48,960 bases of DNA from Solirubrobacterales bacterium (GTDB taxonomy: Bacteria > Actinomycetota > Thermoleophilia > Solirubrobacterales > 70-9): positions 1 to 48,960 of the forward strand of contig DATBHQ010000134.1 in assembly GCA_036557385.1 (NCBI GenBank). Direction: 5' to 3'. Each line of letters opens with the position of its first letter. The stretch's first letter is position 1. Below the pieces are notes generated by a model that was not told where the DNA came from, ran no database searches, and worked only from the letters and a program-made list of their open reading frames with translations. The translations under genes were made by a program, and so were the position numbers. Shown one piece after another: positions 16,016 to 44,808 of this stretch.

Positions 16016-16027
16016 GCCGCTCGAGAC

Positions 16028-20891: not shown

Positions 20892-20904
20892 GGGAACCTG
20901 AGTC

Positions 20905-22830: not shown

Positions 22831-22832
22831 GG

Positions 22833-23924
22833 TCAGCGCAGGAAGGCGAGGAATCCCTCGATCAGGTTGCTGAGCTCCAGGGCCGGCCCGGGCAACGGGC
22901 TCGCGTCGCGGCCGCGCGGAGCCGGGCCGAGCACCCCTCGGCATTCACTCCCGGGCCGCAGGCGGAAGTTCTTCGCATTCCGGTTGACGTAGGCGGGGCT
23001 GGCATTCAGGTTGTCCATCGCGCTGAACCCGGGACCGCCGCTGATCCCACCGTCCTCGTCGTAGTGGGAGTCGGGATTCCCCCCGTGGACGCAGTTGCGC
23101 GCGACGACGTTTCCCCTCCCCACCGGTCCCGGCCAATAGGACTGCACGTTCCAATAGGCGGTCGAATTGCTGATCACGTTGCGCGTGACGACGTTCCCGG
23201 AGGAAGCGCTGGACGCGTCGCCCGAGAAGTTCAGCCCGATCGGATTCCCGTCGATGACATTGCGCCGGATCCGGGCTCCCCGTGAGTCGGGCCCGACCTT
23301 GATGCCACGCTCGGCGTTGTCGTAGATCGTGTTCCGCACGATCCGCGCGCCCCTCACGTCCTGCATGTAGATCCCGTGATCGGGAATGCCTCCGGGCTGG
23401 CCGCAATCGTGGATCCGATTGCGCTTGATCACCGGGTGGCGGACCTCCTCGAGGCTGCCGAGGATGAAGCAGATGCTCGAATCCCGGCTCGAGACGTCGT
23501 CGTGGCGGAAGACGACGCGGTCCGCGTTGATGGTGGGGCTCGGGAGGTCGCGCGCGTTGCGCCCGTCGAGCGTCAGTCGCTCCACGGTCACCCGGGGGGC
23601 GGTGACGCGCAGCCGCCCCGCCAGGGTGGCGCGCTCTCCCGGATAGCCGGTCAGCGTGATCCCCGGGGTGGCGAGGGTGAGCTCGTCCTGCCGGTACGTG
23701 CCGGCTCGGAGGCAGCCCGTCTCGCCTGGCGCGAGCGAGCTCACCAGCCTGCGTGCCGTCGCGTAGGGCGTCGCGGTGGTCCCGGAGGCGGAGTCGTCGC
23801 CGCTCGGGGCGGCCACCTTGTCGCAACCTGCCCCGGCCGCGGTCGAGCGGGAGGACGGCAAGGCGAGGACGAGAGCCGCGACGAGGCCGAGGCACACGAA
23901 CACCGATGTGAGCGGCTTCACCAT
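22833..23924 (-). CDS. Secreted right-handed parallel beta-helix repeat protein (pectate-lyase-fold; possible glycan lyase, hydrolase or epimerase)
   Basis: Signal peptide VFVCLGLVAALVLALP. Repeated V.RN.I.DN / I.RN.I.GN rungs: IKRNRIHDC, IVRNTIYDN, IRRNVIDGN, VTRNVISNS, VARNCVHGG. Confidence 0.7.
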   Translation of the reverse strand: MVKPLTSVFVCLGLVAALVLALPSSRSTAAGAGCDKVAAPSGDDSASGTTATPYATARRLVSSLAPGETGCLRAGTYRQDELTLATPGITLTGYPGERATLAGRLRVTAPRVTVERLTLDGRNARDLPSPTINADRVVFRHDDVSSRDSSICFILGSLEEVRHPVIKRNRIHDCGQPGGIPDHGIYMQDVRGARIVRNTIYDNAERGIKVGPDSRGARIRRNVIDGNPIGLNFSGDASSASSGNVVTRNVISNSTAYWNVQSYWPGPVGRGNVVARNCVHGGNPDSHYDEDGGISGGPGFSAMDNLNASPAYVNRNAKNFRLRPGSECRGVLGPAPRGRDASPLPGPALELSNLIEGFLAFLR

Positions 23925-25120
23925 GCCGTCCGCGCCCTTTCCGCCGGTCGCGAGCCGTTCCGCCCGCTCGGCGCGGTGCCCGAGCGGACGAATTCGGCCA
24001 CGCGCCGGCTCTCGGTCTCGACGGTGTGGCGGCGTACGTGGTCCGCCCCCGCCTGGGTGAGCCTCTGCCGCAGGGAGGGATCACGCGCGAGGCGCTGGAG
24101 CTGGGAGGCGGCGGACGAGGCATCCCCCGGAGGTATGAGCAGGGCACGGCCGACCCCCGCCTCGGCGACCCCACCCACGGCCGTCGCCACGACCGGCAGC
24201 CGGGCGGCGAACGCCTCGAGCAGCACCTGGGGCACGCCCTCGGTCCAGGAAGCGTGAAGGAGGAGGTGACAGTCCCGGTAGAAGCACGCCAACCCGTCGC
24301 CCATCGGCACGTAGCCGTGCAGGTCGGCGTACTCGCGCACCCCGAGCTCCTCGAGCCTCTGCTCCAGCGCTCCGTGCATCGGCCCCTCGCCGACGACCAC
24401 CAGCCGCCAGCGGGGCTCCTGCTCCCGCAGCAGCGCGAGCACGTCGGCGAGCAGCAGCGGGTTCTTCTCGCGCTCCAGGCGGCCGACCGCCAGGACGAGC
24501 ATCTCGCCCGAGTAGTCCCGCTCCCTCTCGCGGGCGGAGCTCTCGATCGCACGCTGCTCGACCAGGGAGACGTACATGCCGAGCGTTGAGTGCGCGTCGC
24601 CATACCGGCGCTCCAGGTCCGGCCCGACGACGATCACCGAATGCCGGCGGGCGAGCCACCGCCAGCTGCCCTCGAGAACCAGGGCGATTCGCCGGAGGGA
24701 GCGTCGGTGCGGGTGGCGGCTCGCCACGTATCGCGGCAGATCCTGTCGGGTGCCGAGGATGACTCGCTTCCCGCGGAGGTTCGCCAGCACCAGGAAGGCG
24801 ATCGAGAGAGCGTGCGGTCCCAGAACCCAGACGGCATCCACGCCGTCGAGGACGCGCCAGAAACGGCGAATCGACCTCAGCAGCGCGGGGGCGGCCCGCA
24901 GCGGCTTGGCCAGCGTTCGATACCAGGGAAGCGGCACGAACAGGATCGAGCCCGGCAGGCGGTAGTGCCACCGCCCGGGCTTGGGATCGACGCGTCCCAG
25001 GAGCACGAGCGCATCCACCTCGCCGGCGAGCCGGCCGAGAAAGAGGGTGAAAGCCTTCTCCGCGTACACCCCGCTGGAGTCGCGCCGGTACTTGTAGTCG
25101 GTGTAGACGGCGAGCCGCAT
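23918..25120 (-). CDS. Glycosyltransferase family 4 (GT-B)
   Basis: GRLEREKNPLLL..., LHASWTEGVPQVLLEAFAARLPVVATAVGGVAE (E-x7-E region). Start taken at MRLAVYTDY (ATG 25120), downstream of the upstream gene's stop. Confidence 0.8.
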   Translation of the reverse strand: MRLAVYTDYKYRRDSSGVYAEKAFTLFLGRLAGEVDALVLLGRVDPKPGRWHYRLPGSILFVPLPWYRTLAKPLRAAPALLRSIRRFWRVLDGVDAVWVLGPHALSIAFLVLANLRGKRVILGTRQDLPRYVASRHPHRRSLRRIALVLEGSWRWLARRHSVIVVGPDLERRYGDAHSTLGMYVSLVEQRAIESSARERERDYSGEMLVLAVGRLEREKNPLLLADVLALLREQEPRWRLVVVGEGPMHGALEQRLEELGVREYADLHGYVPMGDGLACFYRDCHLLLHASWTEGVPQVLLEAFAARLPVVATAVGGVAEAGVGRALLIPPGDASSAASQLQRLARDPSLRQRLTQAGADHVRRHTVETESRRVAEFVRSGTAPSGRNGSRPAERARTAW

Positions 25121-25127
25121 GGCGTCG

Positions 25128-25952
25128 TCAGCCGGGCCCCATCGATGTGAAGTCACAGCTCGCGAGGACGAGGCCCGCGACGAGCAGGGGTTCTCGCACG
25201 TGCCTCGTTCGATCCAGCATCTCCCACGCGGCCGTACCGCGCAGGGCCCGGATCATCCCCGCCGTCTTCAGCCGGAAGCGCCAGGGGGCGTCGCGGTGAT
25301 AGAGGCCGATCCGGGGGCAGCGCAGGGCGGCGACGGGCGCCCGGAAGTCGCCCGGCAGCTCCGCCGCGAACAGGTAGCCGGCGTCCGCCACAGCCTCGGC
25401 CACGCGCCGATCCACCGCCCCGTACGGGTAGGCGATCGAGCGACAGGGAACGCCGAGGCGCCGCTCGCAGTCTCGCCGGGATCCCCGGAGCTCGCCCGCG
25501 AGCTGGCCATCCGCCAGCTCCGGAAGGCGCGGATGGGTCCGGGTGTGGGATCCGACCTCCCAGCCGGCGTCGACGAGCATCTCCAGCTCGGGCCAGGAGC
25601 ACGGCGTGAGCTCGGCCTCGTGGGCCGTGTCGTGCCACCGCTCGATGCCGTCCCAGCACATCGGCCGTTCGCTGCCGATGTACGCGGTGGGCGCGAAGAC
25701 GGTCGCGGGCAACCCGAGCTCATCGAGAATCGGGAACCCGAGGCGAACGACCGAGCGGTAGGCGTCGTCAAAGGTCACGACGAGCGTCCTGCCCTCGGGA
25801 GGTCGAGCGAGCGCGTCGCTGAAGGTGGCGCCCCGGTAGCCGCGATGGACGAGCGTGCGGAGCTGGCTGCGAAGTGCCGTCGGCGAGACCGAGAGCGAGG
25901 CGGGGAACTTCTCGCTCACCGCGTGGTAACAGAGGATCAGCAGCTCGGCCAT
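25128..25952 (-). CDS. Polysaccharide deacetylase (CE4 / NodB homology domain)
   Basis: LCYHAV, VVTFDDAYRSV (TFDD metal/acid motif), GSHTRTHPRL (H-x4-H). Confidence 0.8.
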   Translation of the reverse strand: MAELLILCYHAVSEKFPASLSVSPTALRSQLRTLVHRGYRGATFSDALARPPEGRTLVVTFDDAYRSVVRLGFPILDELGLPATVFAPTAYIGSERPMCWDGIERWHDTAHEAELTPCSWPELEMLVDAGWEVGSHTRTHPRLPELADGQLAGELRGSRRDCERRLGVPCRSIAYPYGAVDRRVAEAVADAGYLFAAELPGDFRAPVAALRCPRIGLYHRDAPWRFRLKTAGMIRALRGTAAWEMLDRTRHVREPLLVAGLVLASCDFTSMGPG

Positions 25953-25958
25953 CGCGCC

Positions 25959-27146
25959 TCACCCTCTGACGGGGCTGTCGACGGGCTCGACCGGCTTCCG
26001 GCCCCGTTGTGCGGGGTCCCATCTCTCGAAGCGAACTCCGCGAATCAGCGAGAGGACCGCCGCGGCCGCGGCGAGATTGACGAGGCAGAAGTAGTAGGCC
26101 ACCCAGAGGGGCCGGGCTCTACCCCACTCCCTGGCGCGGGCGGCCCATCCAGCCGCGGCCAGTGAATAGAAGGCGAGTTGCGGCGCCAGCACGAGCCACC
26201 ACACGGGGTCGAGTGCGGCGAGCCAGACGCCGGCCGCGAGCGCGGTGAAGAGGAAGAAGGGCAAGGTCCGGCGCAGCACCTTGTGGGAGAGGACCTGAAC
26301 CGAATAGAACCCCCCGTGCCAGGGCAGCAGGAGCCCGCCGAGCGAGAAGGCAGCGCGCAGGCCCCGGTTCATCACCCGGACCTTCCGCCTGAACTCCGAG
26401 CCCGCGCCTTCCGGGGAGTCGACCTGCACGAGCGTGTGCTCGTCGAACGCGAGGCGACGGCCGGCCTTGAGCACCTGCGTCGAGATCACGAAGTCGTCCG
26501 TGCCTGAGGTGACGGCGGACGGCCGAAAGAGCGAGCGCCTGATCGCGTAGAGACGGCCGCTCGCGGAGACCGCGCTGCCGACCCTGTCCTCCAGTCGCTT
26601 GATCCACTGCTCGTAGCGCCAGTACGCCCCCTCGCCGCGCGCCACCCCGGAGGAGTCGGACCCGGTGTGGCTCACCTCGTTGGCCGAAACCCCGCCGACC
26701 TCGGGGTCCGCGAAGTTCGCGAGCAACTGGTCCAGCGTGTCGGGGCGAAAGTAGGAGTCGGCGTCCGTGAAGACGAGGATCTCCCCACTCGAGGCGCTTA
26801 CCCCCTCGTTCAGCGCCGTGATCTTTCCCACCCGAGGAAGGTCGAGCACCCGGTCCGTGCCGGCGCCCCGGGCGACGTGGACAGTGCCATCGGTCGAGCC
26901 GTCGGACACAACAACCGTCTCGATCAGCGACCGCGGATACCGCGTGGCGCGCACGTTCGCCACCTTGTCCTCGATCACGTCCTCCTCGTTGTGGGCGGCG
27001 ACGAGAACGCTGACCGTCCTGCGAGTCGGTCGCCGTTTGCGCGGTCGAGGACGAACGCGCCCGAGCGCGGTGAGGAGCAACGGATAGCCCGCGTACACCC
27101 AGGCGATGGTCGCCGCGGAGGCGAGAAACAGGATCAGCGGGAGCAC
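25959..27146 (-). CDS. Membrane-embedded glycosyltransferase family 2
   Basis: N-terminal TM helix, VSVLVAAHNEEDVIEDKV, VVSDGSTDGT, FTDADS (DxD), plus 3-4 C-terminal TM helices. GTG start. Confidence 0.85.
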   Translation of the reverse strand: MLPLILFLASAATIAWVYAGYPLLLTALGRVRPRPRKRRPTRRTVSVLVAAHNEEDVIEDKVANVRATRYPRSLIETVVVSDGSTDGTVHVARGAGTDRVLDLPRVGKITALNEGVSASSGEILVFTDADSYFRPDTLDQLLANFADPEVGGVSANEVSHTGSDSSGVARGEGAYWRYEQWIKRLEDRVGSAVSASGRLYAIRRSLFRPSAVTSGTDDFVISTQVLKAGRRLAFDEHTLVQVDSPEGAGSEFRRKVRVMNRGLRAAFSLGGLLLPWHGGFYSVQVLSHKVLRRTLPFFLFTALAAGVWLAALDPVWWLVLAPQLAFYSLAAAGWAARAREWGRARPLWVAYYFCLVNLAAAAAVLSLIRGVRFERWDPAQRGRKPVEPVDSPVRG

Positions 27147-27149
27147 CGG

Positions 27150-28145
27150 TCAGTGCCCCCAGGGCTCGCCTCTCTCAGCGACACCCCGAACGGGCCCCGA
27201 GCGCAGCCTGCGCTCGGCCAGGACGAGGGTGATCCCGAGGAGCGCCCCGAGCAGAAGGGCAAGGCCAACCGTCCGTGCGGTCTTCGGCCCGACCTGTGTC
27301 GGAGGAGACGGGGCGCTCAGCGTCTCGAGCCGGTAGGGCGGGTAGCTGTCCTCGACAAGGCGGGCTGCTTCAGGCGCGGCCGCGCTCTGCATGGCGAGGA
27401 GCTTCTGATCATCCGGGCCCTTCAGCCGCACGTCGACGATCGTGCTCCCGGTCCGGCGCGTCGCGCTCCACGTGTATTCCGTGCCGCTGCCACCGACGGC
27501 ACTGGTGGGCACGCCGGCGGCCCTGGCGGCGAAGTCGCTCAGCCGCGGGCTGCCGAGCATGTTGACGATCGTCTCCGTGACCGCGCTGTCCGGCTGGGCC
27601 AGCGTCCCGAGCACGTCGTTCACGGACGCGGGGGGAACGTCTGGGCTCGGTCGAACCGCGAAGCTCGATTCCCGTTGGAACGTCTTCGGATCGTTGCTCA
27701 CCGAGATGAACGCCGCGATCGCGGCCACGGCGGCCAGGCCGACGACCGCCAGCGCCCGCCGGATGGGCGAAGGCAGGCGCCTCAGAAGGGCGAGTGCGTG
27801 CCCCGGGCTGGGGGCGCGTCGCGCGAAAGCGGACAGCGCGGCGTAGCGGTCGGGCTTCTCGGGTGGCTCCTCGTTCGACTCGCGCTCGGAGCCATTCCGC
27901 TTCCCGTTTGAGCTGGCCGCCTGCGGTTCCCCGATTCCGTTCGGCGCGTCGGGCTTCCCGTTTCCGTTCGCCGTGTCCGGCCCACGCCGTTGGTTCGGAC
28001 CTCGCAATCCCCGCCGGCGGATTCGCCGGGAGAGCGACGCGGGCGGGCAGCCGACGTGGCGCGCGGTCTCCACGGTCCCGTGCTCGTCCAGCAGGGCCTG
28101 CAACTCGTTGTCGTCTGGCCAGTCGTACTTCTTCGTGCTTGGCAT
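27150..28145 (-). CDS. Bitopic membrane protein with Wzz/PCP-like topology (2 TM helices flanking a ~150 aa external domain) and an N-terminal HTH-like cytoplasmic segment
   Basis: TM1 ALAVVGLAAVAAIAAFISV and TM2 VGLALLLGALLGITLVLA. N-terminal ELQALLDEHGTVETARHVGCPPASLSRRIRRRGL looks like a helix-turn-helix. Assignment rests on topology and context only. Confidence 0.45.
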   Translation of the reverse strand: MPSTKKYDWPDDNELQALLDEHGTVETARHVGCPPASLSRRIRRRGLRGPNQRRGPDTANGNGKPDAPNGIGEPQAASSNGKRNGSERESNEEPPEKPDRYAALSAFARRAPSPGHALALLRRLPSPIRRALAVVGLAAVAAIAAFISVSNDPKTFQRESSFAVRPSPDVPPASVNDVLGTLAQPDSAVTETIVNMLGSPRLSDFAARAAGVPTSAVGGSGTEYTWSATRRTGSTIVDVRLKGPDDQKLLAMQSAAAPEAARLVEDSYPPYRLETLSAPSPPTQVGPKTARTVGLALLLGALLGITLVLAERRLRSGPVRGVAERGEPWGH

Positions 28146-28203
28146 CAGGCTGCCCGTCCTTCCCGATAGAGGCTTTCCAACCCCTCGTTGTCCCCATGCC
28201 CTC

Positions 28204-29439
28204 TCAAATGAGATCTCCGGTCGGCCGGAGGGCGACGCGCGGCCGGTACGACAGTCGAACCACTCGCTGGCGACGGCCGAGGATGTTCCGCGCGAGCGCC
28301 GGAGCGGCGTACCACGTCCCGACGACGAAGCGCATCACAGGCCCGAAGCTGAGCGTGCCTGCCGCGCCGACGAAGTGCAGTCCCGGGACGCTCGATTCGA
28401 AGCCCGGGCTCATCACCGGGTAGCCGCCGGCCACATCGAGGTCCCGAACCAGCTCCTGCGGCAGGAACGGGTATCGGGTGACGTCGACGGCGTAGCCCGT
28501 CCCCAGCAGGACATGGTCGACATCGCGGACGGTTCCGTCGTCGAGAGTGACGCGCACCCCCGTCCCGGATGGGGCCGCCTCGGCAACGGCGCGCCCCATG
28601 TCGATCGGCACCTCTGCCAGCCGCGGACGCAGCCAGTCCGATCCCTTCGGAGCGATGCAGCGCCGGGTGATCTCGGGACGCATCTTGGCCGGCATCCGCC
28701 TGAACAGCTCAGGTGCGGCGGCGATCCAACCCGACCCCATCCCCCCGACGCCGGTCGGCGGCATCAACAGCTGCGTCATTCGGCCGCGCACGTCACTGCG
28801 GTCCTCGGGCGCCAGCCAGACGATGCCCGGGGCTCTGGCGACGACTTCGACCTGCGCGCCGACCTCGTTGAGGATGGCCGCTGACTCGAGGGCGCTCTGC
28901 CCCGCGCCGACCACCATCACGCGCCTGCCGGCGAGGGTCGCGAGGTCCGCGTGGTCGGATGCGTGCGAGACCAGCTCCCGCGGCAGCTCGCCCAGCGGCG
29001 CGGGCCTCCAGGCGAACGGCTCGAGTCCGGCGGCGAGCACGACCCGGTCAGCGGCGACCCCTTCGCCGTCGTCGAGCCTGAGGCTGAATCCTCCGTTGAC
29101 CCGATCGACCCGCTGCACGCGGCGCCGGTCGACGTCGATGGCGGCGGCCAGGCGGAACCAGTCGGCGTACTCGATGTAGCTCTCGATGTCGATCGGCTCG
29201 GAGAGCTTGGCGCCGGTGGTCCGCTCGTATTCGTCGATCGTCAGCGACTGGGTCGGATCGGCGAGGTGCGAGGCGCATCGGCGGGAGCGCAGCAGCATCT
29301 GGCGTGGCATGCGCTCGCGCCAGTAGCCCATCGGCTCCCCGAATATCAGGGGCTCAACGCCGGCATGGCGGAGATGGGCGGCGCAGGCGAGGCCATATGG
29401 GCCCGCGCCGATGATCGCTACGCGCGGGTCAGCGTGCAT
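28204..29439 (-). CDS. FAD/NAD(P)-binding oxidoreductase (flavin monooxygenase-like, two Rossmann motifs)
   Basis: VAIIGAGPYGLACAAHL (GxGxxG 1) and VMVVGAGQSALESAAIL (GxGxxA 2). Confidence 0.7.
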   Translation of the reverse strand: MHADPRVAIIGAGPYGLACAAHLRHAGVEPLIFGEPMGYWRERMPRQMLLRSRRCASHLADPTQSLTIDEYERTTGAKLSEPIDIESYIEYADWFRLAAAIDVDRRRVQRVDRVNGGFSLRLDDGEGVAADRVVLAAGLEPFAWRPAPLGELPRELVSHASDHADLATLAGRRVMVVGAGQSALESAAILNEVGAQVEVVARAPGIVWLAPEDRSDVRGRMTQLLMPPTGVGGMGSGWIAAAPELFRRMPAKMRPEITRRCIAPKGSDWLRPRLAEVPIDMGRAVAEAAPSGTGVRVTLDDGTVRDVDHVLLGTGYAVDVTRYPFLPQELVRDLDVAGGYPVMSPGFESSVPGLHFVGAAGTLSFGPVMRFVVGTWYAAPALARNILGRRQRVVRLSYRPRVALRPTGDLI

Positions 29440-30748
29440 CGGAAGCCTCCTTGGGTCGTGCGCCCAATGCGAGCGGTGCTGGCACCGAGCGCCTTCGGCG
29501 CAGAACGTGAGCGAGCAGAAGCAGGGCCCGTGCGGCCAGTGGGGCCGGGTCGGTCAGCCTGAAGAAGCTCCTGGTCATCCGCCGCCGCGGCAGCAGCATC
29601 CGAACTGCGGAGCCAAACCGGCGGTCCGCCAGGCGCCTCGCCAGGTTCCGTGCCTCGGCGTCCTCCCATCGGTAGCGGTACCCGGGGCGTGCCTCGCCTC
29701 GATCGGGCTCGAAGCCCAGGGCCCAGTCGCACCAGGCCGTGGCGAGCGGGGCCCCCGCTCTGGTGACCAGTTCGAGCGAGCCGAACAGGCGCGGATTGAA
29801 GTCGATCACGGCGAACCGATCGCCGTGCTGAATCAGCTCCAGCTCGAAGATGCCCTGCCAGCCGAGCGCCCCGATCAGGCTCTCAACCTTTCGAGGCAGC
29901 CCTTCGGGTGGGGAGATGGTCTCGGCGAACGACACTGCGCCGCCCTCCGGGGGCCAGGTGCGGCCGTAGCGGCTCACCCCGGATGCCAGCAGGCGACCGC
30001 CGGCCGCGACCCCGGAGAACGAGACGACGGCACCGTCGAGATGTCGCTGAATCAGGGACCCAGGGCCATACGCCGGCCAGATCGATGCGAGCGAAGCCCG
30101 GCTCCGGAGAACCGCGCTGCCTCGCTGAATGGCTCCGCCGTTGCGAGCGACCACGGTGCTGGGCGGCTTCAGCACGATGGGATAGCCGAATCGACGCGCG
30201 GCGCCCAACGCCTCGGCGTCGTCCGCGCAGACCTCGGCATCCGGTGCGCCAAGGCCGGCCTCGACAGCCGCCTCGGCGAGAGCCCGCTTGCTGACGCATC
30301 GCTCCACGACCTCAGCCGCCGGCAGGCCGAGCTCGATGAGCCCCTCCAGACGCGCGCGGTGTCGCGAGACGGCGATCAGCGAGGCGTCGCTACCGGTGAT
30401 CAGCAGGCCGTAGCTTCCGGTCAGCGCGACGTCCCTGAGCTCCTCGACGAAACGAGCCCCGTCCTCCCTGGGATCGGTGGACACGAGGCGCCTGTCACAC
30501 GATCGCGACCAGTGCGCGGCCGCCGGGCGGCTGCTCGCCACAGCGTCGACCGCGTAGCCGGCCAGGTGCAGGCTCCTGCAGGCTGCGAGGGAAGAGCGGT
30601 CCTGCGCGTCGGTCAACAGGACGCGGGGACGCTCTCGTCTTTCTGGCGCGCCTGGTCGCGGGAGCGCCACCAGCCGAGCGCATGTATCCGCCGTTACCGC
30701 TGGCTTGACACCGCGCGCCAAGAATTTCTCCGAGACAACCGCCTTCAC
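29429..30748 (-). CDS. ATP-grasp superfamily carboxylate-amine ligase (COG3919-like)
   Basis: RVLLTDAQDRSSLAACRSLHLAGY..., GYPIVLKPPS, LIQRHLDG, GIFELELIQHGDRFAVIDFNPRLFGS. GTGA overlap with the upstream gene, 11-nt overlap with the downstream gene. Confidence 0.7.
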   Translation of the reverse strand: MKAVVSEKFLARGVKPAVTADTCARLVALPRPGAPERRERPRVLLTDAQDRSSLAACRSLHLAGYAVDAVASSRPAAAHWSRSCDRRLVSTDPREDGARFVEELRDVALTGSYGLLITGSDASLIAVSRHRARLEGLIELGLPAAEVVERCVSKRALAEAAVEAGLGAPDAEVCADDAEALGAARRFGYPIVLKPPSTVVARNGGAIQRGSAVLRSRASLASIWPAYGPGSLIQRHLDGAVVSFSGVAAGGRLLASGVSRYGRTWPPEGGAVSFAETISPPEGLPRKVESLIGALGWQGIFELELIQHGDRFAVIDFNPRLFGSLELVTRAGAPLATAWCDWALGFEPDRGEARPGYRYRWEDAEARNLARRLADRRFGSAVRMLLPRRRMTRSFFRLTDPAPLAARALLLLAHVLRRRRSVPAPLALGARPKEASDAR

Positions 30749-31710
30749 GCCGCCACCCGCTCACGCCGACGCTGGGTCTGGGCCAGGCTCCACGCCGCCT
30801 GGCGCGCCAGGCCCTCCTCCAGACCCACGCCGGGCGCGAAGCCCAGGTCGATCCTCGCCGTGCGGGGATCCGCGCAGGTTCTACGTACGTCGCCCCGCGC
30901 GTCCGGCAGGTGCTCGACCTCGATTCTCAGATCGAGCGTCTGCTCGATCTGAGCGAGGGCCTCGAGGAGCCTCACCTGGGTTCCGCCGCCGATGTTGTAG
31001 ATGGCCCCGGGGCGGCCGTTGCGCGCCGCAGCGATCGTCCCCTTGACGGCGTCTTCGACGAAGGTGAAATCGCGCACCTGGGAGCCGTCACCGAGAACCC
31101 TGACCGGCTCCCCCGCGAGCGCGCTGGCGAAGAACTTCGCGAAGGCCATGTCCGGTCGCTGTCGCGGCCCGTAGACGGTGAAGTAGCGCAGTCCCACGGT
31201 GTGCAGCCCGTCGAGCCGGCCGTACACCGCCGCGAGCTCCTCGGTGGCGAGCTTGGTCAGCCCGTAGGGCGAAAGCGGCGCGCGATGCGTGCCCTCGGGT
31301 GTCGGATAGGCCAGGGAGTTCCCGTAGACCGACGACGAGGAGGCGTAAACGAAGGTCTTGACTCGAGCCGTGACGCTGGCCTCCAGCACACGCTGCGTGG
31401 CCAGCACGTTGTCGTGGACATAGCGAGCGAAGCTCGCTCCGAAGCTTCCTCGCACACCCGGCTGGGCAGCGAGGTGGAACACCGTGTCGACGCCGTCGAA
31501 GGCGGCTTCGAGCCGGTCGCTTCCCAGGTCGAGCTCGAACAGCGTGAAGCGGTTGTGCTCGCGCAGGCCCTCCAGGTTGCCCTCCTTGACCGCGCGCGGG
31601 TAATAGTCCGTGAAGAAGTCGACGCCGACCACTTCCTCGCCCGAGTCGATCAGGCGCTCGCTCAGGTGAGAGCCCAGAAAGCCGGCACAGCCAGTGACCA
31701 GGTGCGTCAA
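30745..31710 (-). CDS. Extended-SDR NAD-dependent sugar-nucleotide epimerase, UDP-glucuronate 4-epimerase-like
   Basis: VTGCAGFLGSHL, ASSSSVYG, YGLTKLATEEL (YxxxK), LRYFTVYGPRQRPDMAFAKF (resembles the Cap1J/GlaKP-type signature). TTG start with TTGA overlap. Confidence 0.8.
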   Translation of the reverse strand: MTHLVTGCAGFLGSHLSERLIDSGEEVVGVDFFTDYYPRAVKEGNLEGLREHNRFTLFELDLGSDRLEAAFDGVDTVFHLAAQPGVRGSFGASFARYVHDNVLATQRVLEASVTARVKTFVYASSSSVYGNSLAYPTPEGTHRAPLSPYGLTKLATEELAAVYGRLDGLHTVGLRYFTVYGPRQRPDMAFAKFFASALAGEPVRVLGDGSQVRDFTFVEDAVKGTIAAARNGRPGAIYNIGGGTQVRLLEALAQIEQTLDLRIEVEHLPDARGDVRRTCADPRTARIDLGFAPGVGLEEGLARQAAWSLAQTQRRRERVAA

Positions 31711-32348
31711 TTCACGCTCCTCATCGAGCCCCTGTCGGGTCCGAGGCCGCGAGGAAGGAGCCGCTGCACCGGCTGCGGTCCCAGGCCGCGTCCGCGCCGC
31801 CGAAGCCCGGGCTCGCGTTGGGGAAGGCGGTGGAGCGCCGCTTCGAGCAGGGACTCCAGCGTCACCCCGTCGTCCGGAGACCTGGCCCAGGCCAGCTCGA
31901 TCTGGTCACCGCAAGCCCCTCTGAGCCGCTGGTCGATCCCGGCCCGGGCAGCCTCGTCGGACGCAAGAACGGCGCACACTCCGTGCCCGCGCAGAGCCGG
32001 GATCGGCGACACGCCGTCGGTGACTCGCAACATGGAGGACACGGCGCTCGCGCACCTTCGCGTGGGTCGCCCGTCGGCGAGCGAGATGCTCGCCGGAAGC
32101 TCGATCACCAGCACGTCCGCCCGCTCGCCGCTGCGACGCAGGCGCGCGAGCTGCATCCTGGCCGGGTAGAGCGCATCCGGGCGGTGCCGCGACCCGCCGG
32201 TCAGCAGGATCACGGCCAAGGTCACACCAGTCCCGAACGACACGGCCTGCGACACCCCGACAAGTCCGAGGCCAATTCCGCCGATGCCGGTCAGGCCGGA
32301 TGCCAGTGCCGCCAAGACGAGCGTGGACGCGCGCGTGCCCGTAGACAT
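31707..32348 (-). CDS. Two-TM membrane protein with a possible degenerate GGDEF-like cytoplasmic domain; first gene of the minus-strand polysaccharide operon
   Basis: TM segments LVLAALASGLTGIGGIGLGLVGV and GVTLAVILLTGG. The cytoplasmic part parallels the GGDEF layout: RRSGERADVLVIELP, LRVTD...LRGHGVCAVLASDEAARAGIDQRLR, and LESLLEAALHRL. By-eye only. Confidence 0.5.
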   Translation of the reverse strand: MSTGTRASTLVLAALASGLTGIGGIGLGLVGVSQAVSFGTGVTLAVILLTGGSRHRPDALYPARMQLARLRRSGERADVLVIELPASISLADGRPTRRCASAVSSMLRVTDGVSPIPALRGHGVCAVLASDEAARAGIDQRLRGACGDQIELAWARSPDDGVTLESLLEAALHRLPQREPGLRRRGRGLGPQPVQRLLPRGLGPDRGSMRSVN

Positions 32349-32492
32349 GGCGGCAGTCTCTCTCGGCTACCAAATTGTCAGTGGGGTTCTCTGCCACCCG
32401 AATGAGGTATTCGGGCAACCGCCGGGCAGGCAGTTTCCGCCCCCGGACGACGCCCGCGCGGGGTAGATCTCTGCCCCCGGCTGGGTCGAGGT
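32349..32492. promoter_or_regulatory. Divergent intergenic control region between the minus-strand polysaccharide operon and regulator pair 2
   Basis: 144 bp of non-coding DNA between divergent start codons. No operator motif could be verified. Confidence 0.35.
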
Positions 32493-33281
32493 TTGCTCTC
32501 CCGACGCCGGGACGGCCCCGTAGTTTCCGATCCCGTGGGTGTGGGGTCGGTATCAGCGCTTCGATCCTCGCCGTCCGAGGCGATCACGGTGGTGACCGTC
32601 GATGGCGACCCGCTCGCCCGCCGCGCCCTACGTTCGCAGCTCGCCGCCGAGCCCGATCTCGAGCTGGTCGGCGAGGCCACGGATCCCTCCGCGGGCATCG
32701 ACCTGGTGTCCGATCAGCAGCCGGACCTCGCCCTGTTCGCAGTCACGGCGCGGGATCGGCGCACCAGCGAGGCGATCGGCGACATGTACACGGCCTCTCC
32801 GAAGACGCGCATCATCGTGCTGGCCATTGAGCGGGACGACGATGCCCAGATGCAGTTCCTGAAGGCGGGTGCCGCGGGCTGGCTCATCAAGTCGGTCGCC
32901 CTCGAAGTCCTCCCCCGCGTGCTTCGCGGCGTGCACGCCGGCGAGGCCGCCGTCCCCAGGGCAATGTGCAGGCGCGTCGTGAGCGAGGCGATCGGGCCCG
33001 GACGAGCGGACCGCAATCGGCTTCGCCCGGTCCGCAGCTCCCTGACGGGACGGGAGTGGGAGGTGGTCGATCTGCTCGCGGAGGGGGCGACAACGGCCGC
33101 GATCGCGGGGGAGCTGCAGCTCAGCCCGGAGACGGTTCGCACGCACATCAAGCACGTGTTCGGGAAGCTCGGGGTGCACTCGCGCGACGAGGCGGTGCGC
33201 CATGTGGAGCGGCTCCGCCGGGAGGGACCCGCGCCACGCCCCGAGAGGGACGGATCAGGCCCATTGCCGCAAGGTCAGTAG
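32493..33281 (+). CDS. LuxR/NarL-family response regulator (degenerate receiver + GerE HTH), with Ala at the phospho-acceptor position
   Basis: ITVVTVDGDPL, QPDLALFAVTARDRR (A for the acceptor D; the MPxxxG turn is also lost), GWLIKS, LPRVLRGVHAGEAAV. HTH: LTGREWEVVDLLAEGATTAAIAGELQLSPETVRTHIKHVFGKLGVHSRDEAV. Start uncertain (TTG 32493 or GTG 32535). Confidence 0.75.
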   Translation: MLSRRRDGPVVSDPVGVGSVSALRSSPSEAITVVTVDGDPLARRALRSQLAAEPDLELVGEATDPSAGIDLVSDQQPDLALFAVTARDRRTSEAIGDMYTASPKTRIIVLAIERDDDAQMQFLKAGAAGWLIKSVALEVLPRVLRGVHAGEAAVPRAMCRRVVSEAIGPGRADRNRLRPVRSSLTGREWEVVDLLAEGATTAAIAGELQLSPETVRTHIKHVFGKLGVHSRDEAVRHVERLRREGPAPRPERDGSGPLPQGQ

Positions 33282-33374
33282 GGGTTTAACCCCGAATGGT
33301 CGGTGGGGGCCGATTCAATTACCGTAAACTGGGTACAGTTGCGTATCGGAGGAGAGACCTGAGGGGGGGCCGAT

Positions 33375-37367: not shown

Positions 37368-38915
37368 GTGCCACCGATTCGGACGATCGAGCTGAGGGCC
37401 GGCGGGCTCACGCTCGCGGACGTCGTCGCGGTCGCGAGGGAGGACGCCCAGGTCGAGCTCGCGGACGACGCCCGCGAGGCGATGCGGGAGAGCGCGGCGA
37501 TCGTGGAGCGGCTCGCCGCCTCCGCGGAGCCAGCGTATGGCGTCTCCACGGGCTTCGGATCGCTCGCCACCACGCCGATCCCGGCCGAGCGCCGGGATCA
37601 GCTGCAACGCGCCCTGATCCGCTCGCATGCCGCCGGGATGGGCGAGCCGGTCGAGCGGGAGGTCGTCCGGGCGATGATGCTGCTGCGGGCGCGGTCGCTC
37701 GCGATGGGATATTCGGGAGCGAGGCCGGAGGTCGCCGAGACGATCGTGGAGATGGTGAACGCCGGGGTCACCCCGGTGGTGCCCGAGCACGGGTCCCTCG
37801 GCGCCAGCGGCGACCTCGCGCCGCTCGCGCACTGCGCCCTCGCCCTGATCGGCGAGGGTGAGATCGTGGATGCGGGCGGGGCCACGCGACCCGCCGCCGA
37901 GGCCCTGGCCGAGGCCGGGATCGAGCCCGTGACGCTGCGCGCGAAGGAGGGCCTGGCGCTGATCAACGGCACCGACGGCATCCTCGCCATGCTGGTCCTC
38001 GCCGTCGAGGAACTGCGCGCGCTCCTTAGCGTCGCCGATCTGACCGCCGCGATGTCCGTCGAGGCCCTGCTCGGAACCGATCGCGCCTTCGCGGAGGACC
38101 TGATCTCGCTGCGGCCGCAGCCCGGGCAGGCGGAGAGCGCCGCGAACATGCGTCGCCTACTCGACGGTTCGCCGATCGTCGCCAGCCACCGCGAGGACGA
38201 CCCCCGCGTCCAGGACGCCTACTCGCTGCGCTGCGCCCCCCAGGTGAACGGCGCCGCCCGGGACGCCCTCACCTACGCCGACGGCGCAGCGAAGGCGGAG
38301 CTCCGTTCCGCGATCGACAACCCGATGGTGCTGCCCGACGGCCGGGTCGAGTCGTGCGGGAACTTCCACGGCGCGCCCCTCGCCCTGGCCTGCGACCTGC
38401 TCGCGATTGCGATCGCGGACGCGAGCGCGATCGCCGAGCGCCGGACGGACCGGCTGCTGGACCCGAGCCGCTCGGAGGGCCTGCCGCCGTTCCTCGCCGA
38501 GGACCCGGGGGTCGACTCGGGGCTGATGATCGCCCAGTACACCCAGGCCGCGATGGTCGCCGAGAACCGCAGGCTCGCGACCCCAGCCGGCGTCGACTCG
38601 CTGCCGACCAGCGCGATGCAGGAGGACCACGTCTCGATGGGCTGGGGGGCGGCCAGGAAGCTGCGGACCGCCGTGGACAATCTTCGGCGCATTCTCGCGG
38701 TCGAGGCGGTCTGCGCCGCGCGGGCGCTCGAGTTGCGCGCTCCCCTCGAGCCCGGAGCCGGGACCGGCGCCGCCCTCGCGGCGATTCGCTCCGCCGGTGT
38801 GCCGGGGCCGGGCGCGGACCGCCATCTCGCTCCCGAGCTCGCGGCGGCGGAAGGGCTGATCGCGGATGGCGGGCTCACGGAGGCCGTCGAGGCCAGGATC
38901 GGGACGCTGCGGTGA
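37368..38915 (+). CDS. hutH: Histidine ammonia-lyase
   Basis: MIO-forming motif [14 protein letters not shown]. Full-length similarity to the HutH pattern ([21 protein letters not shown]). Confidence 0.95.
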
Positions 38916-40573
38916 GCGGCCCCCGCCCGGTGCGAGCGCCCCGCGGGACCGAGCTCTCCGCCAGGGGCTGGCAGCAGGAGGCGGCGCTGCGCATGCTGAT
39001 GAACAACCTCGACCCGGAGGTGGCCGAGGATCCCGACCAGCTGGTCGTGTACGGCGGCACCGGGCGGGCGGCGCGTTCGTGGGACGCCTTCGACGCGATC
39101 GTTCGGTCGCTCCGCGAGCTGGGCGACGACGAGACCCTGCTGGTCCAGTCGGGCAAGCCGGTCGGCGTCTTCCGCACCCACGAGTGGTCGCCGCGCGTCC
39201 TGATCGCGAACTCGAACCTGGTCGGAGACTGGGACAACTGGGACGAGTTCCGGCGCCTGGAGGCCGAGGGCCTGACGATGTACGGGCAGATGACCGCCGG
39301 GTCGTGGATCTACATCGGCAGCCAGGGAATCGTCCAGGGCACCTACGAGTGCTTTGCGGAGATCGCGCGGCGCCGCTTCGACGGATCCCTCGCCGGCACG
39401 ATCTCCCTGACGGCGGGTCTCGGCGGCATGGGCGGAGCCCAGCCCCTGGCGATCACGATGAACGGCGGGGTGGCGCTGTGCCTCGAGGTCGATCCGGCCC
39501 ACCTGCGGAGGCGGATCGAGACCCGCTACCTCGACGAGGAGGCGGACGACCTCGAGGACGCGATCGCCCGCTGCGAGGCGGCCAAGCGCGAGCGGCGCGC
39601 CCTCAGCGTGGGGCTGGTCGCCAACGCGGCGGACGCGCTGCCCGAGCTCCGAAAGATGGGCTTCGAGGCGGACATCGTCACCGACCAGACAAGCGCCCAC
39701 GATCCGCTCAACGGCTACGTCCCCAACCTGATGACGCTGGATCAGGCGCTGCAGCTGCGGGAGGAGGACCCGGGCGAGTACGTGAAGCGCTCCCGCGCCG
39801 CCATCGCGGCCCACTGCGCGGCGATGGTCGGCTTCCTCGACGGCGGCGCCGAGGTCTTCGACTACGGCAACAGCCTGCGGGCCGAGGCCGAGCTCGGCGG
39901 GTTCGAGCGGGCCTTCGCCTATCCCGGCTTCGTCCCCGCCTACATCCGCCCGCTCTTCTGCGAGGGCAAGGGACCATTTCGATGGGTCGCCCTGTCGGGC
40001 GACCCCGCCGACATCGAGGCGACCGACCGAGCGGTGCTCGAGAAGATCCCCGGCGACGAGCCGCTGCGGCGCTGGATCGAGCTTGCCGGCGAGAGGATCG
40101 CCTACCAGGGGCTGCCGGCGCGGATCTGCTGGGCGGGGTACGGGGAGCGCGCCCGCCTCGGACTTCGCTTCAACGAGCTGGTCCGCTCCGGAGAGGTCTC
40201 GGCGCCGATCGTGATCGGCCGTGACCACCTCGACTCCGGCTCGGTCGCCTCGCCCTACCGCGAGACGGAGTCGATGGCCGACGGCTCCGACCCGATCGCC
40301 GACTGGCCCCTCCTCAACGCCCTCGTCAACACGTCGGCCGGCGCCTCCTGGGTGAGCATCCACGACGGCGGTGGCGTCGGCATCGGGCGCTCGCTCCACG
40401 CCGGGATGGTCTGCGTCGCGGACGGCACCGACCTCGCCGCCGAGAAGCTCGAGCGGGTCCTCACCACCGATCCCGGGACCGGGGTGATGCGACACGCGGA
40501 CGCCGGCTACGAGCGGGCGGTCGACGTCGCCGCCGAGCGCGGCGTCCGGCTTCCGATGCAGGACCGAGGGTGA
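38912..40573 (+). CDS. hutU: Urocanate hydratase
   Basis: GTGA overlap with the hutH stop. [65 protein letters not shown]. Characteristic HutU. Confidence 0.95.
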
Positions 40574-41145
40574 GCGTCCGCGAGGTCGTCGAGATCGGCG
40601 ATCCCGTCCTGCGCGAGCGCGCCAGGGAGCTGAGCGCCGAGGAGATCTCCTCCCCGCAGATCCAGGGGCTGATCGACGACCTGATCGAGACCAAGCGCGC
40701 CACGAACGGCGCCGGGATCGCCGCCAACCAGGTCGGCGAGGCGGTCCGGGTCGCGATCGTCGAGGTGGAGGAGCACAACCCACGCTACCCCTACAAGCCG
40801 CCGCACCCGCTGACGGTGATCATCAACCCCGCGATCGAGCCGCTGAGCGACGAGAAGGTCGAGATCAACGAGGGCTGTCTCTCGGTGCCCGACCTGCGCG
40901 GCAGTCTCGAGCGGCACCTCGCGATTCGGGTCCGCTACCTCGATCGCAACGGCGCCGAGCACGAGGAGGTGAAGCGCGGGCTCACCGCGGGAACCTTCCA
41001 ACACGAGGTCGATCACCTCGACGGCATCCTCTTCGTCGACCGCGCGGACCCGCGGACGTTCGCCACCTGGGAGCAGTTCGACCGCTATCAGCGCGAGGAG
41101 TTCGTGCGCCGGGTGACACGGCTCGAGCAGGAGCTCGGGACGTGA
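40570..41145 (+). CDS. def: Peptide deformylase family metallohydrolase embedded in the hut operon
   Basis: All three PDF motifs are intact: [26 protein letters not shown]. There are 4-nt GTGA overlaps with both hutU (40570-40573) and hutF (41142-41145). Confidence 0.85.
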
Positions 41146-42479
41146 GCCCGGTGGAGGCTCTCTGGTGCGAGCTCGCCTGGCTCGGGGGCGAGCAGGCGGA
41201 GGCGGGCGTCGTGATCGGCCTCGAGGACGAGCGAATCGCCTCCGTCGCGGCCGGGGTGTCGGAGCCGCCGGCCAGGGCGACGACCCTCGCCGGGCTGACG
41301 ATCCCGGGGATGGCCAACGCCCACTCCCACGCCTTCCAGCGGGCCATGCGTGGGCGCGTTCAGGCCGAGCGCGGGGACTTCTGGACCTGGCGCCGGCGGA
41401 TGTACGAGATCGCCGAGTCGATCGAGCCCGACGCCTATCTCGCCCTGGCCCGCGCGACCTTCGCTGAGATGGCGCTCGCCGGCATCACCGCGGTCGGCGA
41501 GTTCCACTACCTCCACCACGCTCCCGGCGGCGTGCGATACGCGGACTCGAACGCGATGGGCAGGGCCGTGATCGAGGCGGCGCGCGAGGCGGGGATCCGC
41601 ATCACCCTGCTCGACACCTGCTATCTCCACGGCGGGATCGGGCGGGAGCCGGAGGGCGCCCAGCTCCGCTTCTCGGATGGCACCGCCGATCAGTGGGCCG
41701 AGCGCATCGACGGGCTCGAGCCGACCGGGAGGGCGCGCCTCGGCGCGGCGATCCACAGCGTCCGGGCGGTCGATCCCGAGGCGGCGGCCCGGGTGGCGCA
41801 GGTCGCCGCCGAGCGCTCCTGGCCGCTGCACGCCCACGTCTCCGAGCAACCGGCCGAGAACGAGGACTGCCGGGCCGCCTACGGAACGAGCCCGACCGGG
41901 CTGCTCGCCGAAGCGGGCGCCCTGACGGAGCGCTTCACCGCCGTTCACGCCACCCATCCAGTCGACGACGACTTCCCCCTGCTGGGGGCCAACGACTGCC
42001 GGGTGTGCCTCTGCCCGACCACCGAGCGCGACCTGGCTGACGGCGTCGGGCCCGCGCGTCGCCTCTCCGAGCACGGGATCGGGCTCTGCCTGGGCACCGA
42101 CTCGCACGCCGTGATCGACATGTTCGAGGAGGCGAGGGCGGTGGAGCTGGACGAGCGGCTCGCCAGCGGGCTGCGCGGAGGACATTCCGCCGCCCCGCTG
42201 CTGGCGGCCGCGACCGCGACCGGCTGCGCCGGCATCGGCTGGCCGGAGGGGGGCCGGATCGAGGCTGGGTCGCTCGCCGACCTGGTGACGGTCGGGCTCG
42301 ACTCGGTGCGCCTGGCGGGCGCCTCGCCGGAGCACGCGCTCGAGTCGGTGGTGTTCGCAGCGACCGCCCAGGACGTGCGCAACGTGATCGTGGGCGGGGA
42401 GTTCGTGGTCCGCGACGGCGTCCATCTCCACCTTGACGTCGCCGCCGAGCTGGCCGCTGCGATCGAGGGGCTGCCCTGA
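41142..42479 (+). CDS. hutF: Formimidoylglutamate deiminase
   Basis: [56 protein letters not shown]. Matches the Pseudomonas HutF pattern. Confidence 0.85.
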
Positions 42480-43660
42480 TGAGCACGCTGGCGATCGACG
42501 ACATCGGCCTGCTGGTCACCAACGACCCCGCGCTCGGCGAGGGCCCCCTGGGCGTCGTCCGCGGCGCGGCGCTCATCTTCGAGGACGGGCGGGTCACCGC
42601 GGTGGAGCGTGCCGGCACAGCCGCCGACGAGCGCTTCGACGCGGGCGGCCGCTGCGTGATCCCGGGCTTCGTCGACAGCCACACCCACCTCGTGTTCGCG
42701 GGCGACCGAGCCGAGGAGTTCGCCGCGCGGCTGGCGGGGAAGCCGTACGAGGCGAGCGGGATCCGCGTCACCACCGAGGCCACCAGGGCGGCCGGTGACG
42801 GCGAGCTGCGGACGCTCGCCGAGCGCAGGCGAGCCGAAGGAGCGCGGGCGGGGATCACCCAGGTGGAGATCAAATCCGGCTACGGACTCGACGTCGACAC
42901 CGAGCATCGGCTCTGCGAGATAGCGGCGGGCCTGACCGACGAGGTCACGTTCCTGGGCGCCCACGCCGTGCCGCCGGAGTACGAGGGCCACGCCGACGAG
43001 TACGTCGAGCTCGTCCGCGGCGAGATGCTCGCCGCCTGCGCGCCGTTTGCGCGCTGGATCGACGTCTTCTGCGAGCGGGGAGCCTTCGACGAGGACCAGT
43101 CCCGGGCGGTGCTGGAGGCGGGGCGCGCGGCGGGGCTCGGCCTGCGCGTGCACGGCAACCAGTTGGGGCCTGGACCGGGGATCCGGCTGGCCGTCGAGCT
43201 GGGCGCCGCCTCGGTGGACCACTGCACCTACTTCGACGACGCGGACGTCGAGGCGCTGGCGGGGGGCGACACCGTCGCCACCTTCCTCCCCGCCACCGAC
43301 TTCTCGACCCGCCAGCCCTACCCGGACGCGCGCCGGATGATCGATGCCGGTGTAAGCGTCGCGATCGCCACCAACACCAACCCCGGGTCGAGCAACACCA
43401 CCTCGATGGGCTTCTGCATCGCCCTCGCGGTCCGCGACATGGGGATGACGGTCGACGAAGCTCTGCGGGCGGCGACCCTCGGGGGCGCCGACGCCCTGCG
43501 TCGCGAGGACATCGGCCGGCTCGCGCCCGGGGCTCGGGCCGACGCGATGGTGCTGGACGCGGCGTCCTACATCGACTTCGTCTACCGCCCCGGGGTGCCG
43601 CTGGTGGCCGCGAGCTTCACGGCCGGCACTCAGGCTTCGAGGACGACCGCCAGTCCCTGA
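42479..43660 (+). CDS. hutI: Imidazolonepropionase
   Basis: [43 protein letters not shown]. Typical HutI amidohydrolase. Confidence 0.9.
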
Positions 43661-44808
43661 CCGACCCCGATGCAGAGCGCGGCCATGCCCCAGCCACCGC
43701 CGCGGCGGTGGAGCTCGTGGGCGAGGCCGGCGAGGACGCGCACGCCCGACGCTCCCAGCGGATGCCCGATCGCGATCGCCCCTCCGTTCGGGTTCATCCG
43801 CTCGACCTCGACCCCCTCCCAGCCGGCCAGGTCGGCCAGGCACTGGGAGGCGAAGGCCTCGTTCAGCTCGATGACCGAGACGTCGTCCCAGCCGATCCCG
43901 GCGCGCTCCAGGGCCCTGTTCGCCGCCTCGACGGGAGCGATGCCGAAGATGTCGGGGTCGACGGCGTGGACGCCGCGACCCGCGATCCGGGCGAGCGGCT
44001 CGCGCCCGAGCGCCGAGGCGGTCGCCTCGTCGGCGATCAGCGCCGCCCCGGCACCGTCGTTGAGCGGCGAGGAGTTCCCGGCGGTGACGGTGCCGCCCTC
44101 CTTGAAGGCGGGCCGCAGCTTGGCGAGCTTCTCCAGGCTCGTGTCCGTGCGAATCCCCTCGTCGCGCTCCAGCTCGGTGCCCGGCACCGGGACGACCCAC
44201 TCCGTGTAGAAGCCGTCTTCCCAGGCTCTGGCGGCGTTCCGGTGGCTGCGGAGCGCGAACTCATCCTGCGCCTCCCGGTCGATCTTCCAGCGCTCGGCGA
44301 TCAGCTCGGCGCTCTCCCCGAGCGAGATCGTCCACCGCTCGGGCATCTCGGGGTTGACCATCCGCCAGCCGAGCGTGGTCGAGAACATCTGCTCGTGGGA
44401 GCGGTCGAAGCCGCGCTCGGGCTTCAGCACCACCCAGGGAGCCCGGCTCATGGACTCGACCCCGCCGACCAGGACCCGCGAGGCATCCCCGGTCTCGATC
44501 GCCCGGCTCGCCTGGATGGCCGCCTCGAGGCTGGAGGCGCAGAGCCTGTTCACCGTGGCCCCCGGCACGCTGGTGGGCAGGCCCGCGAGGAGCGCCGCCA
44601 TCCGAGCGACGTTCCGGTTCTCCTCCCCGGCACCGTTCGCGTTGCCGAATGAGACGTCATCGATCGTCTCGGGGTCGAGATCCGGCGAGCGCTCGAGAAG
44701 CGCGCGGACGACGTGTGCCCCGAGGTCGTCCGGGCGGACCTGCGACAGCCCCCCGGCGTAGCGTCCGAAGGGGGTCCTGATCGCGTCGATGACGTAGGCG
44801 TCGGCCAT
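43630..44808 (-). CDS. Acetyl-CoA C-acyltransferase (thiolase II, PcaF/PaaJ-like)
   Basis: [11 protein letters not shown] (active Cys), [28 protein letters not shown]. Confidence 0.9.

Follow-up and report, generated by a model that had tools for sequence, protein, structure and literature searches.

We analysed a 48,960-nucleotide stretch of DNA from a Solirubrobacterales bacterium (contig DATBHQ010000134.1 of assembly GCA_036557385.1, positions 1 to 48,960 of the forward strand; henceforth referred to as the window), in which genes of histidine utilisation (hut) stand in the order hutH-hutU-def-hutF-hutI and def encodes a 191-residue protein of the peptide deformylase (PDF) family (Table 1). 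The initial annotation had described this gene order and GTGA start/stop overlaps on both sides of def, and both descriptions held: HutH, HutU, HutI and HutF are all present, co-oriented and above the NCBIfam equivalog cutoffs (4/4), and the overlaps can be read directly in the sequence. An AGGA lies 6 nt ahead of the GTG start of def at 40570 and the stop of def shares a GTGA (41142-41145) with the GTG start of hutF; in addition, the hutH stop and hutU start overlap in a further GTGA, and the hutF stop is overlapped by 1 nt by the ATG of hutI (TGATG), giving overlaps at four of the four junctions (GTGA, GTGA, GTGA, TGATG). Because every junction overlaps, we consider the five genes to form one tightly coupled unit. 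The start of hutU is most likely the GTG at 38912, as judged from the frame and N-terminus, which fit TIGR01228; when translated from 38957, the match begins at model position 13.

The only Pfam family matched by the window protein is PF01327 (E=1.7e-45, 154.9 bits against a cutoff of 22.8), and NCBIfam NF001159 is likewise exceeded (156.8 bits against 125). The three motifs that had been noted as intact are present as G49IAANQVG56, E101GCLSVP107 and Q144HEVDHLDG152, and an alignment of 50 subfamily members shows Cys103, His145, His149, Glu146 and Gln54 to be invariant. As modelled with AF2 (predicted local distance difference test score 95.3, predicted template-modelling score (pTM) 0.91), the protein has a PDF fold: the top Foldseek matches are all PDFs, the best being Leptospira PDF 1sv2_B (E=3.4e-21, TM-score 0.96, root-mean-square deviation (rmsd) 1.0 Å), and among solved structures the Leptospira, plant-mitochondrial and proteobacterial PDFs are its nearest neighbours.

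HutG (PF05013, the FGase family) usually catalyses the step that follows HutF, and the earlier statement that no HutG is encoded in the operon or the window was borne out by three kinds of search. Among the ~40 predicted genes of the window there was no Pfam match to PF05013 or to M20; a genuine HutG from Rhizobium used as tblastn query against the window returned nothing at E<0.9; and a hidden Markov model (HMM) built from 22 HutG sequences had no match among all window open reading frames (ORFs) of at least 70 amino acids (aa). The window protein itself matched neither PF05013 nor Peptidase_M20 (PF01546/PF07687). As to the usual surroundings of a housekeeping def, no formyltransferase domain (e.g. 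fmt) was found among the ~40 window genes, and a second PDF was seen neither in the 49-kb window nor in ~1.5 Mb of related loci.

To determine how widely def and hut genes are associated, we surveyed synteny in one genome per species, giving 80 loci with orthologs of 61-86% identity. All 80 are from Thermoleophilia, namely from Solirubrobacterales, Thermoleophilaceae, Baekduia and Conexibacter sp. DBS9H8 (a complete genome), and close homologs of the window protein carry the name 'Solirubrobacterales bacterium'. The ortholog was hut-linked in each of the 80 species and stood alone in none, the closest hut gene being a median of 6 bp away and no more than 100 bp away in 78 of the 80; the arrangement is thus the rule in Thermoleophilia and clearly not unique to this strain. 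The order H-U-def-F-I was found at 61 loci and was compatible with a further 11 partial contigs, while five loci had the order H-U-F-I-def and three had F-U-H divergent from def-I. A metagenome-assembled genome of Acidimicrobiia, which encodes a 52%-identical homolog, displayed a fourth order, hutC-hutU-hutF-hutI-def-hutH, also with overlapping junctions. When genes were clustered over the survey loci just five conserved families emerged, namely HutU, HutH, HutI, HutF and the PDF homolog. This linkage lies far beyond chance: 80/80 relatives have it, compared to 0/80 HutF loci of other phyla with a PDF in the flanks fetched (up to 8 kb). Some survey loci contain unrelated insertions (a PhyH dioxygenase, a β-helix protein, or DsbA with VapBC). 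The PhyH-family gene (phytanoyl-CoA dioxygenase-like, PF05721, ~264 aa) lies between hutH and hutU in at least seven Solirubrobacterales species, and hutI is separated from the PDF homolog in Conexibacter sp. DBS9H8 by a DsbA-family gene and a VapBC-like toxin-antitoxin pair.

The 80 HutF loci from other phyla, annotated by HMM in fetched flanks of up to 8 kb, also served to compare the partners of HutF. In this set a PDF was found at no locus, HutG/FGase was adjacent at 19 and an M20 peptidase-family gene at 10, whereas the window and 84 further PDF-type loci had a PDF in 85/85 cases, no HutG and no adjacent M20; the lone M20 among these 85 is a non-adjacent, unlinked gene in locus L029. Two partner types occurred together at none of the 165 HutF loci, and such mutual exclusivity of PDF, HutG and M20 is as predicted by non-orthologous displacement. 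At the 10 M20 loci hutF is directly preceded on its own strand by an ArgE-type M20 gene, the product of which exceeded the cutoff of TIGR01892 in the four cases checked. This two-gene module is carried by Acidobacteria/Gemmatimonadota-like metagenome contigs on which hutH, hutU and hutI are not nearby, and the M20 genes beside hutF are likely misannotated as ArgE (TIGR01892 being the 'acetylornithine deacetylase' equivalog). The M20 (COG0624) protein of Streptomyces avermitilis, an earlier context-based candidate, had no deformylase activity in vitro (PMC3223725). Despite this negative assay, an M20-type formylglutamate hydrolase is supported by fusions in oomycetes (Phytophthora, Pythium, Lagenidium and Globisporangium), in which HutF forms the N-terminal and Peptidase_M20 the C-terminal part of proteins of 827-861 aa, mirroring the Def-HutF fusions described below. 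A Streptomyces hut locus in our set (L091, on a 1.5-Mb linear plasmid) has the order H-U-I-F, followed by an ISL3 transposase gene.

When two enzymes occur as one fused protein, this is classically taken to show that they catalyse consecutive steps. An exhaustive search of 50% representatives, followed by a search with one fusion as query, yielded 17 clusters in which both domains occur (full-length in 15, at 640-736 aa), with identities down to 55%; in each the PDF domain is N-terminal and the HutF domain C-terminal. One cluster (659-660 aa), whose HutF part lies above the NF006681 cutoff, turned up on 19 contigs in JGI, ENA and Logan data. Among the sources of the fusions are transcriptomes of Stephanoeca diplocostata, Acanthoeca spectabilis (both choanoflagellates) and Paraphysomonas (a chrysophyte), as well as picoeukaryote-like contigs; Diplonema has unfused subfamily members. 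Since the metagenomic fusion genes adjoin Josephin, Skp1, Myb and Oscp1 genes, we take these contigs to be eukaryotic nuclear DNA. Assembly or frameshift artefacts were ruled out as the source of the eukaryotic fusions by the 19 contigs of three origins, the complete ORFs in transcriptomes and the number of clusters; such artefacts do, on the other hand, probably explain many of the near-identical 'fusions' listed for Thermoleophilia among the representatives. The product of HutF, to which the PDF part is fused, is N-formylglutamate.

We considered whether the active site is that of an ordinary PDF, using Escherichia coli numbering verified against the sequence of 1bs4. In ordinary PDFs the equivalents of Ile44 and Ile128 shape a hydrophobic S1' pocket, in which contact with the methionine side chain makes the active site close, and the CD loop of the Leptospira enzyme is mobile (Fieulaine et al., PMC3101196). 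The window protein lacks such a methionine pocket (Ile44, Ile128 and Cys129 or conservative equivalents), the feature by which substrate recognition in PDFs is defined, and has Ala48, Gly141 and Thr142 instead, an 'AGT' signature that was found in no ordinary PDF of those compared; in the 27 ordinary PDFs, position 128 is mostly R/A/T/V and position 129 mostly V/I/C/A. On the loop, Tyr75-Lys76 is invariant across the subfamily, compared to RYP[D/E/G][A/T]P in ordinary relatives. Next to the second motif, Asn100 is restricted to the hut-linked actinobacterial clade, with Trp at this position in ordinary relatives and Tyr in non-hut subfamily members. By homology, these pocket and loop changes may accommodate the two carboxylates of formylglutamate.

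In a phylogenetic tree the proteins with the AGT signature form a monophyletic subfamily, inside which the hut-linked actinobacterial proteins are one clade. The nearest ordinary PDF that we looked up (P0303 of cluster P0153, one of the best-scoring clusters of full-length ordinary PDFs) has its gene in an argS/mnmE/relA neighbourhood and not among hut genes. In this proteobacterium-like genome the stop of the upstream gene, which encodes 530 aa and has no Pfam match, is overlapped by the P0303 gene. No ordinary def of Thermoleophilia was present among the high-GC non-AGT representatives screened, the names there being Vicinamibacteria, Rokubacteria and Myxococcota. The AGT signature as such was rejected as a marker of hut linkage, given four non-hut contexts: a DSP phosphatase with an M24 peptidase, DUF6918 (three loci), an aldehyde dehydrogenase and a PALP enzyme. 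None of these is translation-related, which hints at further small-molecule roles for the AGT subfamily, and its non-hut members may work with hut genes to which they are not linked, or on other substrates. Among the PDF-family proteins collected, P0151, P0157, P0175 and P0189 (331-339 aa) each carry a tandem pair of PDF domains on a single chain.

The reading that the window protein is an N-formylglutamate deformylase has the support of four independent comparative lines of evidence, and the proposal in the initial annotation that a PDF-type enzyme replaces HutG is backed by the linkage, the fusions, the exclusivity of partners and the altered methionine pocket. On these comparative-genomic grounds we think it probable, with fairly good confidence, that the protein acts as an analogue of HutG. 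In such a pathway HutH, HutU and HutI would convert histidine to N-formimidoyl-L-glutamate, HutF would convert this to N-formyl-L-glutamate and ammonia, and the PDF-fold protein would hydrolyse the N-formyl amide to formate and L-glutamate (EC 3.5.1.68), HutG's usual step. The chemistry would be that of PDFs, with a metal held by Cys103, His145 and His149 activating a water molecule, Glu146 acting as general acid/base, and Gln54 together with the backbone of Leu104 steadying the oxyanion; the leaving group, however, would be a free amino acid with two carboxylates and not a Met-peptide. The shift in specificity could originate both from the remodelled S1' pocket (Ala48, Gly141, Thr142), with Asn100 beside the metal motif, and from the gating loop, where the invariant Tyr75-Lys76 could serve to hold a carboxylate. 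Since the five genes form one translationally coupled operon, the PDF-fold enzyme would be made in step with HutF.

Several results weigh against this reading. The window protein exceeds the cutoff of the PDF equivalog TIGR00079 (121 bits against 103.95). The pocket substitutions are small or polar and include no obvious cationic residue for binding carboxylates, and because AGT members of other bacteria are not hut-linked, the pocket signature alone is no proof of formylglutamate specificity. At 51 of the 80 HutF loci of other phyla no adjacent partner was seen, many of these having short flanks. Moreover, a context-based prediction for the same step has failed before, the S. avermitilis M20 protein having been inactive in vitro (PMC3223725).

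An ordinary housekeeping PDF that is merely co-transcribed with the hut genes, N-formylglutamate being hydrolysed by an unlinked enzyme, is an alternative that the initial annotation had itself raised. It would account for the curated PDF cutoffs being passed, for the intact catalytic motifs and canonical fold, for the occurrence of related AGT-type proteins outside hut clusters in other phyla, and it agrees with no second def having been seen within the ~20 kb inspected per genome. However, an essential constitutive gene is unlikely to be kept in a catabolic operon across at least four gene orders and two classes, and neither the mutual exclusivity of PDF, HutG and M20 beside HutF nor the absence of PDF from all 80 HutF loci of other phyla fits with it. 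Eukaryotes, in addition, fuse the subfamily to HutF in nuclear genes, and eukaryotic cytosolic proteins do not carry formyl-Met. The residues that would grip the Met side chain are also replaced (for their role see PMC3101196). Given linkage maintained through rearrangement, the fusions and partner exclusivity, this alternative is disfavoured and we regard it as quite improbable. Even less probable, in our view, is that the protein is the genome's only PDF and serves both translation and N-formylglutamate hydrolysis: the conservation of the catalytic machinery is complete, no second def was demonstrated and the widened pocket (Ala48, Gly141) could in principle admit Met, but all 80 orthologs are hut-linked with none alone, the subfamily occurs as a HutF fusion in eukaryotes, and a position behind hutH-hutU would presumably tie an essential activity to the availability of histidine, for which the sole regulator seen is the HutC-type gene heading the Acidimicrobiia operon.

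A PDF-fold deformylase or deacylase of small molecules could also have an in vivo substrate other than N-formyl-L-glutamate, candidates being an N-formyl or N-acyl amino acid of another kind, or a by-product of the catabolism of histidine or urocanate (e.g. N-formyl-isoglutamine or N-formyl-aspartate). The wider AGT subfamily, with its varied metabolic contexts (aldehyde dehydrogenase, PALP enzyme, DUF6918), has the look of a small-molecule amidase family, and the S1' wall has no evident cationic residue. Against this, the recurrent and specific partner, as neighbour or by fusion, is HutF with its product N-formylglutamate, the operon would otherwise be without the last step of its pathway, and the parallel pairings of HutF with HutG and of HutF with M20 indicate the same step; we therefore consider a different substrate unlikely. 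A broader form of the formylglutamate-deformylase reading is that the whole AGT branch, which from the sequences collected appears to span, among bacteria, Thermoleophilia, Acidimicrobiia and several other groups and, among eukaryotes, choanoflagellates, chrysophytes, diplonemids and picoeukaryotes, is an old and unrecognised family of N-formyl-amino-acid (chiefly N-formylglutamate) deformylases and not of peptide deformylases. We put this forward tentatively and with some doubt; if it is true, the eukaryotic fusion would be a bifunctional enzyme that takes formimidoylglutamate straight to glutamate, and the HutF pathway would have had its closing step invented at least three times over, as FGase, as M20 and as PDF fold.

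Elsewhere, the 49-kb window consists chiefly of a glycan-biosynthesis cluster and regulators (Table 1). Upstream of the operon, a putative gene for a Pro/Ser-rich protein, divergent from hutH, occupies the ~860 bp where one would expect to find the promoter or a site for a regulator, and no HutC-type regulator is found near the operon, in contrast to the Acidimicrobiia locus. Downstream, the 3' end of hutI overlaps that of a convergent thiolase gene, where no terminator-like structure was detected. Promoter and terminator scans of the window, the sequence of which is 71% GC, gave nothing useful.

Table 1. Features of the window and of the loci and proteins compared with it (positions refer to the window unless a locus is named).
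Feature	Position	Strand	Evidence or remark
hutH, histidine ammonia-lyase, step 1	37368-38915	+	TIGR01225 673 bits, cutoff 539; PF00221
hutU, urocanate hydratase, step 2	38912-40573	+	TIGR01228 905 bits, cutoff 375
Gene for the 191-aa PDF-fold protein (step 5: proposed deformylase of N-formyl-L-glutamate, HutG analogue)	40570-41145	+	GTG start; PF01327; predicted function
hutF, formimidoylglutamate deiminase, step 4, yields N-formylglutamate	41142-42479	+	NF006681 615 against 362; TIGR02022 454 against 413
hutI, imidazolonepropionase, step 3	42479-43660	+	TIGR01224 339 bits, cutoff 298
hutU/def junction	40560-40573	+	AGGA 40560-40563; hutU stop TGA 40571-40573; GTGA overlap
Motif 1, G47-A-G-I-A-A-N-Q-V-G56	40708-40737	+	Gln54 (oxyanion) kept; E. 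coli Ile44 replaced by Ala48
Loop R72-Y-P-Y75-K76-P77	40783-40800	+	Counterpart of the mobile CD loop of Leptospira PDF
N100 and motif 2, E101-G-C103-L-S-V-P107	40867-40890	+	Cys103, metal ligand
Motif 3, A140-G141-T142-F-Q-H145-E146-V-D-H149-L-D-G152	40987-41025	+	Metal ligands His145, His149; catalytic Glu146; E. coli Ile128/Cys129 replaced by Gly141/Thr142
Large glycan/exopolysaccharide cluster	13400-33300		Between two LuxR-type response regulators; sugar transferase, GNAT, flippase, GT4 and GT2 glycosyltransferases, Wzy-like ligase, polysaccharide deacetylase, epimerase, β-helix protein
Pro/Ser-rich ORF, 293 aa	36493-37374	-	No Pfam match; putative gene
Thiolase gene	43630-44808	-	3' end overlaps hutI 3' end by 31 bp (43630-43660)
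PhyH insertions between hutH and hutU	L017, L018, L021, L031 (7558-8352), L042, L049, L079
VapBC-like pair and DsbA-family gene, Conexibacter sp. DBS9H8	L071 (8689-9996)
M20-hutF modules	L105, L109-L111, L113-L117, L120
Oomycete HutF-M20 proteins			P0519, P0476, P0464, P0500, P0513, P0554, P0558, P0560
Non-hut AGT loci	L097 (8001-8579), L098, L099, L101, L102, L103
Ordinary PDF gene of P0303	L094 (6001-6534), L095, L096

The window protein probably represents a third way of carrying out the HutG step, by means of a PDF fold, that is not previously described in the literature or in curated models: among the papers searched, none ties a PDF to histidine utilisation, NCBIfam release 20 has no dedicated model for the hut-linked subfamily, and the hut-linked proteins are named 'peptide deformylase' in every source. 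We know of no earlier PDF-fold enzyme with a small-molecule catabolic substrate, and if the proposed function is correct, the protein would be a natural example of how a few changes in pocket and loop retarget an essential enzyme of protein maturation. It would also fill a recognised gap, the last-step enzyme of HutF-type histidine catabolism in Actinobacteria, for which the earlier M20 candidate failed (PMC3223725). Reconstructions of the abundant soil Solirubrobacterales would then gain a complete route from histidine to glutamate, and re-annotation would be due for thousands of proteins from soil metagenomes and for several genes of eukaryotes that at present are called 'peptide deformylase' or 'formimidoylglutamate deiminase'. 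The proposed function would also matter for how specific PDF inhibitors are and for the counting of 'def paralogs' as reserves of antibiotic resistance.

Among known systems, the four-step pathway uses an arginase-fold formimidoylglutamase (called HutG in enterics and Bacillus) that converts formimidoylglutamate to glutamate and formamide in one step, with neither HutF nor N-formylglutamate; because the operon has HutF, this route does not apply here. The M20 candidates occupy the same slot beside HutF, as neighbour or by fusion, are exclusive with HutG and the PDF type and are likewise metallo-amidohydrolases acting on N-acyl amino acids; their fold differs (M20 peptidase), and the case of the S. 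avermitilis protein, which was without deformylase activity when assayed (PMC3223725), is unproven. Closest in structure are the PDFs with a long CD loop, from Leptospira interrogans (1sv2/1y6h), plant and human mitochondria (PDF1A; 1zxz, 4je6, 3g5k), Burkholderia and Pseudomonas aeruginosa, which have rmsd values of 1.0-2.2 Å, TM-scores of up to 0.96 and 38-40% identity to the window protein and have in common with it the three motifs, the metal ligands and the 'RYP' loop insertion. In marked contrast, where the window protein has Ala48, Gly141, Thr142, Asn100 and Tyr75-Lys76 these enzymes have Ile/Val, Arg/Ile, Val/Ile/Cys, Trp and [D/E/G][A/T], respectively, and the window protein belongs to a catabolic operon or, in its relatives, a HutF fusion, and not to a housekeeping neighbourhood. 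HutG of the five-step, Pseudomonas-type pathway (PF05013; EC 3.5.1.68) is unrelated in fold and family, so that the window protein would be an analogue and not a member of the FGase family; it nevertheless shares with the window protein the proposed reaction and the position after HutF, as well as the genomic habit, lying beside HutF or other hut genes in 19-21 of the 80 sampled loci.

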